Of a stretch of 64,000 nt of DNA, positions 13,389-32,423 are shown piece after piece (the stretch's first letter is position 1; each line of letters opens with the position of its first letter). A program made the translations under genes and the position numbers. The DNA is taken from IMG/VR virus record IMGVR_UViG_3300033463_000032, positions 32,001 to 96,000 of that record, one strand, 5' to 3'. The notes under the pieces are model-generated. The model was not told the origin of the DNA, did not search any database, and saw nothing but the letters and a program-made list of their open reading frames with translations. The stretch is from a virus. Taxonomy: Duplodnaviria > Caudoviricetes.

Positions 13389-16300
13389 ATGGCTATCGCA
13401 AGTATGATGAATCAAAAGTCACAGTACCTCATTGGTAAGTATGCCAAGAGGATTAAGATGGTAGAGAGTGTTCAGGGTAAGCCTCTCTCCTATGAAAAGA
13501 AAGTAGTTCTTGCTAACTGCTTAGAGAATACAGCAGATCGTATTAAGGCATTTGAAGCTACTAACCCTGGTCAGATCGGTAAACAACTTGCCGCATAATA
13601 TGGTAACATATTATGGAAAACCTAGTGAATTGCTGGAAACTCCTAATATTTAATATCTCGGTGTTAGGACAATCAGCAGCTTTATATCAATAATAAGGTA
13701 GGACAGTAGGTTCGAAACTATTTCTTACTACCCTTAATGGTAAGATTACTACCTCATTATATAGATTAAATCTTTAAGGGAGATTTAAGATATGTATGGA
13801 TATATTTATTTAATAACCAATAAAGTAAATGGTAAAAAGTACATAGGACAAAGAACAGCGGATTTTAAAACTGATTCTAAATACTTAGGATCTGGAACTC
13901 TTATTAAGAAAGCAGTTGCTAAGTATGGTACAGAAAGTTTTAATAAAGAACTTCTTGAAGAATGTAATTCAAAAGAAGAATTAGATGATAAAGAAAAGTT
14001 CTGGATTTTAAAATTTAATGCTATAGAAGATGAATCATTTTATAATCTTGCAAATGGAGCTAATGGTTCTACTAAAGGTTCTAAAAGATCAGAAGAAACT
14101 AAACGTAAGCAATCTGAGAAAGCAAAACTTAGAAGTATAGATGAAGATACTAGAAAGAAAATATCTAAGACAATATCTTCACAATGTTGGGTTAATGATG
14201 GTCATATAGAAACTAAGGCAACAAAAGAAACATTAGATGAATACTTAAATAAAGGATTTGTTTTAGGTAGATTACCATTTAGTGAAGATACTAAACATAA
14301 CATGAGTGTTTCATTTACCAGAAGAACTCATACAGAAGAAACTAAGCAACATATAAGTAAAATTACTTCTGGTGATCATAATCCTTTTTATGGTAAGAAA
14401 CATTCTGAAATTAGTAAAAAGAAAATGTCTGAAAGAGCTAAAGGTAGAAAAGCATCTACACAGACAAAACAAATACTATCAAGTCAAAGACTTGGAAGAA
14501 AATGGATTAACAATGGTAAAGAAAATAAATTTGTTAAACCAGATGATTTAGAAAAGTATTTACTTGATGGTTGGTTATTAGGAATATATCATTGATATGA
14601 AGTTCAACGACTATCGAAAGCATAATGTAAGAGAAAGACTTACATGAAGAAGCGAGTAGAGTAAGGTTCAAGTGAACTCAAGTGCTAGGGTTCTTAATAA
14701 TGGTAACAGTTATTAAGAATGTGATATAGTCTGAACTCTATAGTAATATAGAGAAAATAAACGGAAACGGTTTATTTGTAACATAATTGCAGTATAAGAG
14801 ATATGCATTGGACTTAGTTACGGCTACATTGCCGAATCTTATTGCATTTGATCTTTATGCAGTACAGCCTATGGATAATAGGATCGGTAAACAATCTGCC
14901 GCTTAAGTTAGTGATAACTTAAGAAAACTCGGTGAAAACAGGGGAAACCTTATATTTGAGGTAAGATATAAGACAATCCTGTGCGAAGTCTTACAATTAA
15001 ATATTACTTATTACTTTATGATATAATCTAAGGTAATAAGGTAGGACAGTAGGTTCGAAACTATTTCTTACTACCTCTTATTTAGTGAGATTACTACCTT
15101 GTTAAATATAAACTTAATCTTAAGAGGAGATTAAAAGTATGTATGGTTATATTTATATGACTACTGATATTACCAATAATAAAAAATATATTGGTAAGCA
15201 CAAAGCTAGTGAATTTACTACTAAGTATGTAGGTTCTGGAAAGTGTCTATTAAGAGCAATAAAACAACACGGAAAAGAAAATTTTAAAGTTGTTATGTTA
15301 GAAGCTTGTAATACTTTAGAAGAACTTAATGAAAAGGAAAAATTCTATATTGCTAAATATGATGCATTGAACTCTAAAGATTTTTATAATATACACCCTG
15401 GCGGTGATGGTGGTGACATTGCATTGTATTTATCAAAATCTAAACTGACTCATATAAGAAAAGAACATTCTAAATATATTTTAGATAGACTTAAAACTGA
15501 TGAGGAATTTCATAGTAGATTTGCTGGTGCTAAGAAAGGTCACAAGTGTTATCAAGGCACTAAGGACAAAATAGGTTCTGCTCAAAAGAATTATTGGAGC
15601 AGAACACCGTATGAAATTAAACATGAAAGACTTTCTAGGAGTGCAACTACTAGATGTACTGGTAGAATCTGGATAACTAATGAAGTTATTGATAAATTTA
15701 TAAAACCAGAACATTTAGATGAGTTTTTAGCAGTAGGCTTTAGAATAGGTAGGAAGTTTCAAAAACGTAATAGACCTTGTAAGAAACGTTAAACGACTAT
15801 CGAAAACACTATCAATGAGAAAGACATTGAATAGGAAGTGAGTAGAGTACATTCTAAGTAGAATGGAAGTGCCGAGCATCTTATTAGTGGTAAAAGTTAA
15901 TAAGATGATGATATAGTCTGAACTCTATGGTGACATAGAGAGTTATATTGGAAACGAATATAACGTAACATAAATTGATGATCAATTACCTTGATTACAC
16001 ATACCAGTCAAATAAGGGTGATGTAGTAAATGGTCAGGTATTTAATGGAGCTCTTAAGGGTTCTTTCTCTGATAAGGATTACACATCTGCATTTGTAAAT
16101 GGTGAGAAGTTTGTAGGTGATGGTTCTAACAAGGTATTTAATCTTGCTTGGACACCGGTTGACACAAGAGTAACAACCCAGATTGGTGAGTCTGTTCTTC
16201 CGATCATTACAGTTGGTGGATCTCCGGTTACTGTAGAGATTGATAATGGCCAGACAAATCCTGGTGCATTAGTATCTGCTAGTGGTGTAGTTACATTTGA

Positions 16301-19062
16301 TACTGCTCCGAGCAATAATGCAGAAGTAGTTGTTAAGTATTGGTTCTTGAATGAAGATGTAAGATCTAATGGTTTTGGTGCATTTGGTGGTCCTAACAAT
16401 GGCAATCAGGCTATTGACGGAGCTAGAGGTGCTGCTGGATTTACAAATGTTCCGGAAATGGGCCTTAAGATGCAGACAGTACCTGTAGAGGCTAAGGCTA
16501 GAACACTTAGAGCATATTGGGCCTTTGATGCTCAGTATGAGCTTTCTAAGGAATATGGCCAGTCTATTGAGGATCTGTTAGCTACACAGGCTTCTGGTGA
16601 AATTGCCCATAGACGTTTTGTGGCATAATATATAAATAAGGTTAATAGTGTGATAGAATAAAAAAAAGAAACAAAACATTCAACATTTTAAATTTGATTG
16701 TTTTGTGGGACAGTAGGTTCGAAACTATTTCTACATTCCTTAACAATGTAGATTACCACAATTCAAATATAAAAATTAGTTAAGGTGATTTTTATGGCAA
16801 AGAAAAATTCTAAATGTTACACAGATGGAAAACAAAACATCTATATAAGTGAAGGGATGGAAATACCGGAAGGTTTTTATAAAGGCTTTGCTTATAAATC
16901 AGAAAGTACATTAAAGAATAGGGTTCAAAAAACTGCTAAGACAAAATTAGACCGTTATGGATCTGAAACTTATAATAATTCTGAAAAGAGTAAGCAAACG
17001 TGTTTAACCAGATATGGTACAGAAAATCCTTTAAAGTCTGAACAAATAAAAGATAAGATCAGACAAACAAACTTAGATAGATATGGTGTTGAAAATCCAT
17101 TTCAAAACAAAGAAGTTAAAACCAAAGTAAAGCAAACATTGTTAGAAAAGTATGGTGTTGAAAACATAGCACAAACAGAAAGTCACAAACAAAAGGTAAG
17201 TGATTTCTGGAAAAACATTTCTGAGGATCGTTTGGTTGAAATTTCTGATAAGAAAAGAAAAACTTGTTTAGAAAAATATGGTAAACAATCTGTAGGGCAA
17301 GTACCGGAGTTCCGGGAAAAGATAGAAAAGACTTGCATAGAAAGATATGGTGTACCGACATATTTAATGACAGAAGAAGTCAGATTAACAACATCTAATG
17401 ATTCTGGTCCTAATCAAGATTTTGAAAACAAACTTAAAGAAGTTGGTTTAGCTTTTAGCAGAGAATATCATATTGATAGAAAGAGTTATGATTTTCTTTG
17501 TAGTGATACATTAATAGAGATCAATCCATATGCAACACATAATTCAACATGGGGCATATTTGGTAGAGATCCTTTAGATAAGAGATATCATTACGAAAAA
17601 ACAAGACTTGCAAAAAGAAATGGATTTAGATGTATAAATATTTGGGACTGGGATGATAAAGATAAAGTATTATCTTTGATAACACCTAAATCAAAAATAT
17701 ATGCCAGAAAGTGTAAGATTTTAGAAATATCTTCTGAGGCCAGTAAAGATTATCTTAACACCTGGCATTTACAAGGTAATGTTAATTCTGATATTAGGGT
17801 TGCATTAATCTATGAAGATCAAATAGTATCATTAATGACATTTGGTAAGAGTAGATACAATAAAAAGTATCAATATGAATTGTTACGTTATTGTTCAAGT
17901 AAATGTGTAATTGGTGGATCAGAAAAACTTTTTAAGTATTTTTTGAAAACCTATAAGCCGGAAAGTATTATAAGTTATTGTGATCTTTCTAAGTTTACAG
18001 GAACTGTATATGGTAAGTTAGGATTTACTTACAAAACTTATACAATAGGTAAGCATTGGTATAATCCTAAAACACAAACACATATTACAGATAACTTATT
18101 AAGGCAAAGAGGTTTTGATCAACTGCTAGGAAAAACTTATGGATGTTTTGGAAAAGGAACAAGTAATGAACAGTTAATGCTACAACATGGTTTCGTTGAA
18201 ATTTATGATTGTGGTCAAGCTACATATACTTGGAGCATTAAATAACCTTATGAAATTATTATGAAAACCTCGTTAATTGCTGGAAACTCTTAAAGACTTA
18301 TCACCTTTAAGACAATCAGCAACTATATATCGATTATGATATGTAGCTCAGAGACTATCGAAAGCATAATGTAAGAGAAAGACTTACATGAAGAAGCGAG
18401 TAGAGTAAGGTTCAAGTGAACTTGAAATGCGAGGGTTCTTATTAATGGTAACAGTTAATGAGAACGTGATATAGTCCGATCTTTATGGTGACATAAAGAA
18501 TTATGATGGAAACGATCATAATGTAACATAAATGGAAATTGATAATGAGCTTACAATCGATCTTCTTACGACCGCTATTGGCAATACAAATCCTGAGCTT
18601 TATATGAGATCTTGGTCTAAGGTACAGCCTACGGGTGTATCTCTTGCAGATCACTATGATGGTTTCATTGAGAAGATCATTGATTGTTCTAATGCTATTA
18701 ACGCAGCAACAAGAAAAGTATCTGCAAACTTTATGGTATGTGGACTTGGAGTTGCTACTGTTGTTAAGGTAATGAGAACATTCCAGGCTTCTGGTAACAT
18801 TGCAAATGGTCCTTACTATCTTGGAACTCTTGGTGATATCAAGGTTTATGTAAACCCTGATTATCCGGCAGATTATTTTGTAATGGGTTATAAGGGTACT
18901 AACATGTTTGATGCTGGTGCTTTCTATCTCCCTTATATGCCTGTAACATCAACAGATACGATCATGACTGCTGATTTCCGTGGTGAGAAGGCTTGGGCAA
19001 CAATGTATGCTAAGAAGATTCTCAATAAGGATATGTATGTTGCTGGTCAGATTACTAAGTAA
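13389..19062 (+). CDS. major capsid protein (T4 gp23-like), spliced join(13389..13580,14790..14888,15978..16610,18535..19062), 483 aa
   Basis: Exons join in frame: ...NPGQIG|QYKRYALDLVTATLPNLIAFDLYAVQPMDNRIG|MINYLDYTY...ASGEIAH|EIDNELT...; PNLIAFD..VQPM, VEAKARTLRA, EIxxEI and GYKG...DAGAFYLPY are gp23 hallmarks. Confidence 0.92.
13690..13791 (+). ncRNA. three-way-junction / kissing-loop RNA element upstream of intron HEG, copy 1
   Basis: Invariant GGACAGTAGGTTCGAAACTATTTCT (13701-13725); loop CCCTTAA (13731-13737) complementary to RBS-hairpin loop TTAAGGG (13774-13780). Confidence 0.8.
13792..14595 (+). CDS. intron-encoded GIY-YIG homing endonuclease (NUMOD3)
   Basis: YGYIY...KKYIGQR, YLGSG, FYNL; NPFYGKKHSE. 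Confidence 0.9.
   Translation: MYGYIYLITNKVNGKKYIGQRTADFKTDSKYLGSGTLIKKAVAKYGTESFNKELLEECNSKEELDDKEKFWILKFNAIEDESFYNLANGANGSTKGSKRSEETKRKQSEKAKLRSIDEDTRKKISKTISSQCWVNDGHIETKATKETLDEYLNKGFVLGRLPFSEDTKHNMSVSFTRRTHTEETKQHISKITSGDHNPFYGKKHSEISKKKMSERAKGRKASTQTKQILSSQRLGRKWINNGKENKFVKPDDLEKYLLDGWLLGIYH
15019..15027 (+). promoter_or_regulatory. extended -10 promoter (TGaTATAAT) for the intron-2 HEG
   Basis: TGnTATAAT 7-8 nt upstream of the RNA element. Confidence 0.5.
15035..15138 (+). ncRNA. three-way-junction / kissing-loop RNA element, copy 2
   Basis: Invariant core 15044-15068; loop CCTCTTA (15074-15080) complementary to TAAGAGG (15121-15127). Confidence 0.8.
15139..15792 (+). CDS. intron-encoded GIY-YIG homing endonuclease
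   Basis: YGYIY...KKYIGKH, YVGSG, FYNI. Confidence 0.9.
   Translation: MYGYIYMTTDITNNKKYIGKHKASEFTTKYVGSGKCLLRAIKQHGKENFKVVMLEACNTLEELNEKEKFYIAKYDALNSKDFYNIHPGGDGGDIALYLSKSKLTHIRKEHSKYILDRLKTDEEFHSRFAGAKKGHKCYQGTKDKIGSAQKNYWSRTPYEIKHERLSRSATTRCTGRIWITNEVIDKFIKPEHLDEFLAVGFRIGRKFQKRNRPCKKR
16631..16659 (+). promoter_or_regulatory. internal promoter TATAAA-17-(TGa)TAGAAT for the intron-3 HEG
   Basis: Same hexamers and spacing as the minus-strand promoter at 58528-58583. Confidence 0.5.
16703..16793 (+). ncRNA. three-way-junction / kissing-loop RNA element, copy 3
   Basis: Invariant core 16708-16732; loop CCTTAAC (16738-16744) complementary to GTTAAGG (16779-16785). Confidence 0.8.
16794..18245 (+). 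CDS. intron-encoded Hef/Vsr-like (PD-(D/E)xK) endonuclease with N-terminal T-x-L-x-(R/K)YG repeats and a C-terminal GNAT-like domain
   Basis: Six TxLx(R/K)YG-type repeats; YDF...IEINP..H; IYARKC...HLQG...ELLRYC...SYCDL. Confidence 0.7.
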   Translation: MAKKNSKCYTDGKQNIYISEGMEIPEGFYKGFAYKSESTLKNRVQKTAKTKLDRYGSETYNNSEKSKQTCLTRYGTENPLKSEQIKDKIRQTNLDRYGVENPFQNKEVKTKVKQTLLEKYGVENIAQTESHKQKVSDFWKNISEDRLVEISDKKRKTCLEKYGKQSVGQVPEFREKIEKTCIERYGVPTYLMTEEVRLTTSNDSGPNQDFENKLKEVGLAFSREYHIDRKSYDFLCSDTLIEINPYATHNSTWGIFGRDPLDKRYHYEKTRLAKRNGFRCINIWDWDDKDKVLSLITPKSKIYARKCKILEISSEASKDYLNTWHLQGNVNSDIRVALIYEDQIVSLMTFGKSRYNKKYQYELLRYCSSKCVIGGSEKLFKYFLKTYKPESIISYCDLSKFTGTVYGKLGFTYKTYTIGKHWYNPKTQTHITDNLLRQRGFDQLLGKTYGCFGKGTSNEQLMLQHGFVEIYDCGQATYTWSIK

Positions 19063-31250: not shown

Positions 31251-32423
31251 ATGAATCTTAACTATGGTGATACAAATCTTGAAGTAAGATATCTTGAAGC
31301 ATTTCTTCAAAATGAATACAGTTCTACTTTAAGAGTTAGTGGAATATATGATGCATATACACATGAAACTCTTATTGAGTATAATAATCTTCCAAAAGTT
31401 GAAGATGCTAATTCTTTTTATATTCATGTAATGAATGATTTTGGAGAATACTTAAGTAACTTTAAAGTTGCCATTCTGTCTGATTCCATTACATTTCTTT
31501 CTAAATCTGTATCACAATTGCCTGAATTAGATGATGATATGGAAGCATTAAGGAAGAATGATATTTTTCAGTATGTAAGAAAGTATGGTTGGTCCATAAC
31601 TCAATTTGTATCATATGTATCTAATACAGAAAGATATATGATACAGATAAGTAAAGATACTAGGAAAAATCTTATTCCAGCAGATGCTATTTCATTAATA
31701 AATCTTTCTACATCAAATATTCTTACTGGTACAAAATTAGATCAGAATTCACCAATGATAAAGAAGGATTCTACTAATGCTAAATGCTGTATGATAGTGC
31801 CTTGTTTACCAGATACAGAATACATATTGATACATAGATTTGCTACTGAATATGATCCATTAGATCCTACAGTTCCTATTTACCCAGAAATAGTAGTTGG
31901 TTCTTCACCATATCAATATCCAAATCTGAAAGAACTTTCTAACAATATTAAGAACAATGAATTAATCCAGGTAGAACAAGGAGTACCTACCATATATAAG
32001 ACTTCTGGTTCTGCTAATTCCATTATTCTTAGCTATGATTATGATAGATTAACTTATAACAAGTCTATTTTAGTGTTGAAGAAACCCAGTACTTTTGATG
32101 GAAGTTTTATAATAGATACTTCTGGTTTTATTCTTAATTACTGGCTAGTAAATACAAAGTATATGGATTATGTTTTAGGTAGTTCTATATGTGAATATTC
32201 TGATGAAGAAGATATAGCATATGCTCAAGATTTATTAGATACTGTATGTAGAGATTATCATATAGATAAAAAAGGTGTTTACACAGAAACATTTAGAGAT
32301 GCTATATTAAGATATCAACAGAAAAGAAAGATAACATTTGCATTAGGTTATATTGATGTTGAAACAGAAACTGCATTGTTAAAAGATCAAGAATCCAATA
32401 CAAGCATTACTATTTATTCTTAA
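31251..32423 (+). CDS. virion protein with peptidoglycan-binding-like domains
   Basis: L.YGD...EV..L...L...G.YD..T at the N-terminus; GVY...F..AI..YQ...G.ID.ET at the C-terminus. Confidence 0.5.
   Translation: MNLNYGDTNLEVRYLEAFLQNEYSSTLRVSGIYDAYTHETLIEYNNLPKVEDANSFYIHVMNDFGEYLSNFKVAILSDSITFLSKSVSQLPELDDDMEALRKNDIFQYVRKYGWSITQFVSYVSNTERYMIQISKDTRKNLIPADAISLINLSTSNILTGTKLDQNSPMIKKDSTNAKCCMIVPCLPDTEYILIHRFATEYDPLDPTVPIYPEIVVGSSPYQYPNLKELSNNIKNNELIQVEQGVPTIYKTSGSANSIILSYDYDRLTYNKSILVLKKPSTFDGSFIIDTSGFILNYWLVNTKYMDYVLGSSICEYSDEEDIAYAQDLLDTVCRDYHIDKKGVYTETFRDAILRYQQKRKITFALGYIDVETETALLKDQESNTSITIYS

Follow-up and report, generated by a model that had tools for sequence, protein, structure and literature searches.

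We analyzed a 64,000-nucleotide (nt) stretch of DNA from a virus of the class Caudoviricetes (positions 32,001 to 96,000 of IMG/VR record IMGVR_UViG_3300033463_000032; the whole stretch is hereafter called the window), in which a major capsid gene is interrupted by three introns, each encoding a homing endonuclease. The same structured RNA leader lies just upstream of each of these homing endonuclease genes (HEGs). In it, a three-way junction carries a hairpin loop that is complementary to the Shine-Dalgarno (SD) sequence of the gene that follows. The leader belongs to a family with at least 100 distinct copies in uncultured viral contigs, mostly located 5' of free-standing HEGs. The explanation that best accounts for the observations as a whole is that the leader is a translational lock, which probably holds the SD and limits synthesis of the nuclease.

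The order of the elements, as read directly from the sequence, was the same in all three copies: P1, GAC, P2, P3, UUA, P1', and the SD hairpin (coordinates in Table 1). The 21-nt core GACAGTAGGTTCGAAACTATT was found at exactly three sites of the window (13702, 15045, and 16709, all on the + strand), with none expected by chance, and no fourth copy was present across the whole 128-kb genome, which has terminal repeats. P1 pairs as AGGTAG/CTACCT in copies 1 and 2 and as TTGTGG/CCACAA in copy 3, while the P2 stem is AGTAG/CTATT, with the loop L2 GTTCGAAA (GUUCGAAA as RNA). The arms of P3 are TCTTACTA/TGGTAAGA in copy 1, TCTTACTA/TAGTGAGA in copy 2, and TCTACATT/AATGTAGA in copy 3. In each copy, the P3 loop (L3) contains an exact 7-nt complement of the loop of the SD hairpin (CCCTTAA/TTAAGGG, CCTCTTA/TAAGAGG, and CCTTAAC/GTTAAGG, respectively), and the ATG lies 8–11 nt 3' of that loop. 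Folded alone, each copy gave a minimum free energy (MFE) structure consisting of the three-way junction and the SD hairpin (z −2.0 to −2.7), with the SD placed in the loop and 3' arm of the hairpin in all three cases. An earlier note on this DNA had described this anatomy, including the 7-nt complements and an invariant 25-nt core; every helix was confirmed by reading and folding, and both of the other features are common to the three copies. The palindrome in L2 and the 25-nt core are identical in the three copies despite the unrelated open reading frames (ORFs) that they precede, which points to a recent exchange of the leader between cassettes.

The pairing between L3 and the SD is specific to each copy. 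When L3 was compared with the 60 nt downstream in 55 distinct elements, the mean complementarity of the cognate pairs was 6.97, against 4.90 ± 0.13 for permuted pairs, and none of 20,000 permutations reached the cognate score. The comparison was repeated with an independent set of 70 elements from a scan in which both loops were left unspecified, with a similar outcome (6.89 versus 4.95; 0 of 10,000 permutations). These results decisively support the kissing loop between L3 and the hairpin of the ribosome-binding site (RBS) that the earlier note had observed. The paired words are diverse (for example, CCGCAU/AUGCGG, CCACAA/UUGUGG, CCAAGC/GCUUGG, CUCUCGA/UCGAGAG, and GUACCUC/GAGGUAC), and pairs compensated by G·U, such as CCUUAUC/GGUAAGG, also occur. 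The target of L3 is located 2–14 nt 5' of the start codon in 54 of the 55 elements and overlaps the SD in nearly all of them, the three weakest matches being located elsewhere; in 44 of the 55, it lies between hairpin arms of at least 4 bp. None of the alternatives considered below explains this covariation better than a translational lock.

To gather the copies outside the window, collections of viral, metagenome, and genome sequences were scanned with both exact and degenerate patterns. Scans with the exact core returned six stretches from the metagenome collection and two from the genome collection, mostly on the same contigs as the viral set, and two leader copies were on contigs binned with metagenome-assembled genomes of Firmicutes/Lachnospiraceae. 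When the fetched loci were searched with a covariance model built from 13 copies, an approach that the earlier note had suggested, 84 matches were obtained, 65 of them distinct. In the model alignment, 95.6% of the pair cells were standard, compared with 67.0% after shuffling, and none of 500 shuffles reached the observed values. Changes on both sides were seen in 16 of the 18 pairs, with 343 compensated cells, and the signal collapsed when the partner columns were shifted. The covariation of P1 and P2 was reproduced on a MAFFT alignment. As the earlier note had expected for homologues, then, all three stems of the junction covary. The positions that are invariant or nearly so among the 65 distinct sequences are GAC, UUA, the first two pairs of P2 (A-U, followed by G·U), and the first pair of P3 (U-A), to which the invariant core adds the G-C pair closing P1. 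The stem of P2, left free in the scans, occurred as AGUAG/CUAUU, AGCAG/CUGUU, AGCGG/CCGUU, AGAGG/CCUUU, and AGCGA/UCGUU. The G·U pairs of P2 and P3, including the invariant second pair of P2, fit only an RNA of the + strand.

The genes behind the leaders encode nucleases of the GIY-YIG, HNH_3/NUMOD4, DUF7487, DUF723, and LEM-3-type GIY-YIG kinds. The idea that the element accompanies every intron HEG is correct for this window and too narrow for the family. In about 40% of the relatives, P3 is a short stem with an internal loop, CUGAAAC opposite GAGUAAG, rather than a plain stem of 8 bp; this internal loop, located under the kissing loop, looks like a sarcin-ricin/loop-E motif (S-turn) (for example, L001:4902-4961, L017:6053-6110, and L041:495-554). 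Two single loci also deserve mention. At L004:12578-12700, the GIY-YIG ORF has an in-frame TGA at the position of a usual W (…NSR*SCH…), which would indicate either recoding of TGA as W in this 140-kb phage or a pseudogene. At L001:4800-5080, the leader is directly 3' of a tRNA-like sequence and is followed only by an ORF of 32 codons, and may represent a decayed cassette within a tRNA cluster.

Most of the relatives are free-standing rather than intronic. A sigma-70 promoter (up to two mismatches) was found upstream of the leader in 17 of 56 distinct regions and in none of 56 control windows; 12 of the 17 end 5–13 nt 5' of P1, and four are perfect (TTGACA-17-TATAAT). Extended −10 elements were likewise found upstream in 13 cases, against none in the controls. 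Since these promoters are just 5' of P1, the nuclease gene of those phages is predicted to have an mRNA of its own that begins with the leader. The position of the leader before free-standing genes also suggests that it is independent of introns or splicing, and the suggestion of the earlier note that nuclease translation is possibly licensed only after splicing finds no support in these data. For the three copies of the window, the promoter scan was uninformative, with 27 promoter-like sites compared with 26 ± 5 in shuffled sequence; copy 2 has TGATATAAT 7 nt 5' of P1, weak evidence given that the overall scan was at the level of chance.

Sequestration of the RBS is known to limit the expression of I-TevI, I-TevII, I-TevIII, segB, and mobE (the last from phage Aeh1), and loss of the I-TevI hairpin impairs splicing of the td intron in T4 (PMC2988022). 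Like those hairpins, the leader is a cis RNA structure that hides the SD of a phage HEG, be it intronic or free-standing, and its purpose is likely the same: to limit a risky nuclease and to keep ribosomes out of the intron. The T-even structures, however, each consist of one local hairpin, which has a sequence of its own and is bypassed by a late promoter inside it (PMC2988022), whereas in the leader about 57 nt form a three-way junction that is conserved, and the SD is occluded by a loop-loop helix; the leader also has a second, self-complementary loop, is common to unrelated nuclease families, and is placed downstream of the promoter.

A bypass of the I-TevI type is nevertheless an established mechanism for T-even HEGs (PMC2988022), and would mean that only read-through transcripts are locked by the leader; late in infection, a shorter, translatable mRNA would arise from a promoter in the spacer that separates P1' from the SD hairpin. 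The spacers of the window are A/T-rich, with TATA-like sequences (ATATAGA, ATATAAA, and ATATAAA) ending 6–7 nt before the SD loop, and a related subclass on T4-like contigs has TATAAATA/TATAAAAA boxes in the spacer in five of eight cases, both of which would suit such a bypass. Within the element and spacer, however, we found a sigma-70 promoter in only 1 of 56 regions, and the T4 late-promoter word TATAAATA and an extended −10 in 2 regions each, the good promoters being upstream of P1 instead. In addition, TATAAATA is not enriched in the window (13 occurrences versus 15.5 expected), and some spacers have only about 4 nt. Altogether, a bypass of this kind seems improbable for the leader.

The subclass just mentioned (T4-like viral contigs L059, L064, L084, L106, L110, and L118) shares the junction core. 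Pyrimidines predominate in its P2 loop (UUCUCCUA, UUUCCYGA, and AACCUCCA), which in some copies complements the downstream SD (UUCUCC/GGAGAA). Part of the P2-loop sequence is repeated about 20–30 nt 5' of P1 and changes with the loop. The downstream genes do not look nuclease-like from their N-termini, as judged by eye, no comparison with Pfam or PHROGs having been made.

In the mechanism that we propose for the translational lock, the junction would present L3 for a pairing of 6–9 bases with the loop of the small SD hairpin downstream. The SD would thus be doubly held, by the hairpin stem and by the loop-loop helix, and access of the 30S subunit, as well as nuclease synthesis, would be kept low. 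In the intron copies of the window, the lock would also keep ribosomes off the ribozyme, which would safeguard the splicing of the capsid mRNA. Finally, two leaders could pair via their self-complementary L2 (GUUCGAAA in this window), an interaction by which the lock could be made tighter, or be tuned, at rising RNA levels. Repression of translation, dimerisation, and protection of splicing are all inferred from comparative and computational evidence.

The counts for L2 come from the set gathered without regard to the loops. Palindromes of at least 6 nt were present in 24 of 39 distinct loops (8.4% under the null model; P ~1e-16), and palindromes of at least 4 nt in 34 of 39; as a control, a 6-nt palindrome was seen in only 1 of 66 L3 loops. 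The palindromes include 11 different hexamers, and the sequences observed in the scans that left P2 free were UUCGAA, UUGCAA, UCAUGA, GUGCAC, UGGCCA, UAGCUA, UCCGGA, UCGCGA, CUGCAG, UGAUCA, UAAUUA, and AUUAAU. The earlier note had taken GUUCGAAA for a T-loop-like loop, part of an architecture similar to that of the cobalamin riboswitches. A T-loop is a conserved 5-nt U-turn with a reverse Hoogsteen pair between U1 and A5 and a UUCRA-like sequence; this assignment was rejected, as L2 varies freely in the relatives and only its self-complementarity is kept, and the cobalamin-like aptamer idea is not sustained for the same reason. Because a hairpin loop is unable to self-pair within one molecule, contact between the loops of two leaders is the natural reading, and dimerisation of the RNA through L2 is likely. 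In one relative (L135), L2 is AAGUGCACA, which contains the GUGCAC palindrome of the dimerisation initiation site (DIS) of HIV-1. Related phages of 131–151 kb have two leaders each (G001–G005, the records of L004, L024, L072, L020, and L030, together with L015 and L016). In the seven other records with two copies, the two L2 palindromes always differ, although this is not significant given the frequencies of the palindromes in the population and no claim is made from it.

A palindrome could also act at the level of DNA, with P2 and its loop forming an inverted-repeat operator or a recombination site for a dimeric protein. P2 is indeed a near-perfect DNA palindrome of 18 bp just 3' of the promoter, and I-TevI represses its own expression via an operator. 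The sequence of the palindrome, however, varies freely, with 11 hexamers and several variants of the stem, more freedom than a protein site would allow; the invariant G·U and the unpaired flanking bases break the DNA symmetry; P1, P3, and L3/SD covary as RNA; and the nucleases served are unrelated. For these reasons, a DNA site is highly improbable.

An element for RNA processing or stability was also considered, in which the junction at the 5' end would block 5'-end-dependent decay, or RNase III would cut a P2-P2 duplex and thereby release or destroy the message. In many relatives, the transcript is predicted to start right at the 5' end of P1, and two palindromic P2 hairpins could become an extended duplex of about 16 bp, like the HIV-1 DIS in vitro (PMC7357161). 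Such an element would leave the strongest signal, the copy-specific complementarity between L3 and the SD, unexplained, and no ribozyme or RNase P-substrate family was matched, so that we give it little credence.

The invariant junction is the only evidence for the riboswitch-like or protein-responsive switch that the earlier note had favored, in which a metabolite, or a conserved factor of the host or phage, would bind the junction and thereby make or break the kissing of L3 with the SD. That the junction varies so little, if at all, among 65 distinct sequences could be expected of a binding site, and an aptamer-like loop that kisses an RBS hairpin resembles the expression platforms of the cobalamin riboswitches, in which the aptamer loop L5 kisses the loop L13 of the RBS hairpin. 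The leader, however, has no B12 box and no four-way junction core, as also indicated by the lack of a match to RF00174, the cobalamin riboswitch model, at E up to 1 over 10 kb or up to 10 on the element alone, and no ligand is indicated; the resemblance is limited to the pairing of two loops, one in a structured 5' domain and the other in an RBS hairpin further downstream. The absence of a B12 box had already been pointed out in the earlier note. Moreover, the element alone matched no Rfam family, even when E values up to 10 were allowed; the loop once taken for a T-loop is a palindrome of variable sequence; the junction is small (3, 0, and 3 unpaired nt); and no metabolism common to the genes served hints at a ligand. 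No mutually exclusive alternative fold was noticed either, although no systematic search for one was made. A sensor of this kind is not supported and, in our opinion, unlikely.

Several points weigh against the leader being simply a translational lock on nucleases. The counts of pairs (95.6% and 16 of 18) rest on an alignment fitted to the covariance model, and the instances in the MAFFT alignment were pre-selected by the parser for pairing of P1 and P2. Some relatives (L021, L025, L027, L031, and L039) serve a gene for a 104-amino-acid (aa) HTH_36/replication-initiator-like protein instead of a nuclease; the match between L3 and the SD is of 7–9 bp in these copies. A hairpin alone would suffice for simple repression, so that the presence of an invariant junction and of a palindromic loop speaks for a further function, which the lock does not capture. 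Lastly, the spacers between P1' and the hairpin go down to about 4 nt, with which an intramolecular loop-loop helix may be sterically strained; this would make possible an arrangement in trans within a dimer.

We favor the view that the invariant junction and the palindromic L2 are a layer added to the lock, namely, dimerisation of the RNA, which would couple the lock to RNA concentration. A more far-reaching form of this view, which we put forward only tentatively, is a dosage controller made of RNA alone, in which leaders dimerise through L2, kissing between L3 and the SD takes place in trans or is stabilised within the dimer, and translation is turned off as the mRNA accumulates. If this were true, the free choice of palindrome would give each cassette its own orthogonal control.

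Other natural systems also resemble parts of the leader. In the antisense control of ColE1 (RNA I/RNA II) and R1 (CopA/CopT), which acts in trans between two transcripts, fully complementary hairpin loops of 6–7 nt nucleate an inhibitory RNA-RNA complex, as the loops of the leader may do; the two loops of the leader, however, are on one molecule, or on two copies of the same one. The L2 loops are similar to the HIV-1 DIS (GUGCAC) and to the oskar 3' untranslated region in having a 6-nt palindrome in an apical loop of 7–9 nt, often with flanking purines (PMC7357161), while differing in that the leader is part of a phage mRNA and adjoins a translational lock, its dimerisation being deduced from sequence alone. 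The leader thus resembles the T-even hairpins in function and combines a kissing loop in the style of riboswitches with a DIS-like loop architecture, being a member of neither family.

In agreement with the earlier note, which did not recognise the element as a named family, no match was found in Rfam 15, at E up to 1 over 10 kb and up to 10 on the element alone; the matches to REN-SRE, let-7, and snoRNA families at lax thresholds were attributed to chance. The element is not tRNA-like, as ARAGORN detected no tRNA or tmRNA genes in the window and no tRNA family of Rfam was matched. When the 6-kb region and the leader were compared by blastn with 50,697 GenBank phage records, only HEG coding sequences were matched, the matches to the leader being at the level of chance, and the literature searched held no description of a HEG leader with a kissing loop or a three-way junction. 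Within Rfam 15, the GenBank phages at the sensitivity of blastn, and the literature searched, the leader family is uncatalogued.

The gene that houses the three copies is a major capsid gene of the T4 gp23 type. Its four exons (13389-13580, 14790-14888, 15978-16610, and 18535-19062) align with successive parts of Pfam Gp23, the joint between exons 3 and 4 falling at positions 183 and 185 of the profile. RF00028 (Intron_gpI) was matched by the contiguous core of intron 3 with 49.0 bits (E 9.8e-12), 1 bit below the gathering score. The three introns are paralogous, their cores being 85% identical with compensatory changes in the stems, and the guide covaries with the end of the exon: in introns 1 and 2, the exon end CGGU goes with the guide GCCG, and in intron 3, CCAU goes with GUGG. 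The exon word is ATCGGT before introns 1 and 2 and CCCAT before intron 3, and the matching guide is 9 nt into each intron. In intron 3, the cassette is flanked by a 9-bp pair (16636-16644/18243-18251; ATAAGGTTA/TAACCTTAT) that forms the extension of P2, the stop codon of the HEG being within the 3' strand of this extension; likewise, the end of the ORF of intron 1 enters the 3' strand of P6. As the leader and ORF are in P6 in introns 1 and 2 and in an extended P2 in intron 3, the leader is carried by the cassette and not by the ribozyme, as the earlier note had proposed. Its claim of two unrelated nuclease families was correct for GIY-YIG, and the third nuclease, previously described as Hef/Vsr-like, was reassigned to DUF7487/phrog_3339, with a likeness by blastn to the "Hef" of a Campylobacter phage.

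Table 1. Features of the intron-containing capsid gene and its leaders, in positions of the window
Feature	Position	Strand	Remarks
Group I intron 1 of gp23-like capsid gene	13581..14789	+	Leader and HEG in P6 loop
Leader copy 1, three-way junction	13696..13754	+	Direct reading, core scan, covariance model (72.4 bits), folding
Copy 1 P1	13696-13701/13749-13754	+	GAC 13702-13704; UUA 13746-13748
Copy 1 P2	13705-13709/13718-13722	+	L2 13710-13717 (GUUCGAAA)
Copy 1 P3	13723-13730/13738-13745	+	L3 13731-13737 (CCCUUAA)
Copy 1 SD hairpin	13766..13788	+	8-bp stem; loop 13774-13780 (UUAAGGG), exact complement of L3; ATG 13792
HEG 1, GIY-YIG + NUMOD3 homing endonuclease	13792..14595	+	267 aa
Group I intron 2 of gp23-like capsid gene	14889..15977	+	Leader and HEG in P6 loop
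Leader copy 2, three-way junction	15036..15102	+	Direct reading, core scan, covariance model (68.4 bits), folding
Copy 2 P1 core	15040-15044/15094-15098	+	Extendable to 15036/15102; GAC 15045-15047; L2 15053-15060
Copy 2 P3	15066-15073/15083-15090	+	L3 15074-15082 (CCUCUUAUU)
Copy 2 SD hairpin	15114..15134	+	Loop 15121-15127 (UAAGAGG), complement of first 7 nt of L3; ATG 15139
HEG 2, GIY-YIG homing endonuclease	15139..15792	+	217 aa
Group I intron 3 of gp23-like capsid gene	16611..18534	+	Leader and HEG in extended P2; ribozyme core 18235-18498
Leader copy 3, three-way junction	16703..16761	+	Direct reading, core scan, covariance model (75.7 bits), folding
Copy 3 P1	16703-16708/16756-16761	+	GAC 16709-16711; L2 16717-16724
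Copy 3 P3	16730-16737/16745-16752	+	L3 16738-16744 (CCUUAAC)
Copy 3 SD hairpin	16771..16793	+	Loop 16779-16785 (GUUAAGG), complement of L3; ATG 16794
HEG 3, DUF7487/phrog_3339 homing endonuclease	16794..18245	+	483 aa; E 3.8e-82

With the leader, the catalogues of RNAs would gain a new family with strong covariation, as well as a rare example from nature, outside riboswitches, of a loop-loop helix that locks an SD. The leader may also represent a signal for mRNA dimerisation, rare among those of natural origin in bacteria or phages, functional RNA oligomers being seldom seen in nature (PMC7357161). Because both loop pairings are reprogrammable by sequence, the scaffold would be a ready-made design for synthetic translational locks. 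For the phages themselves, an HEG poses a dilemma, as it must be expressed enough to spread, and not so much as to harm the phage or block the splicing of an essential gene, here that of the capsid. Promoter, leader, and ORF appear to move as one cassette, and nucleases of unrelated families, in many phages known only from uncultured material, appear to share the leader as a portable solution to this problem of dosage.

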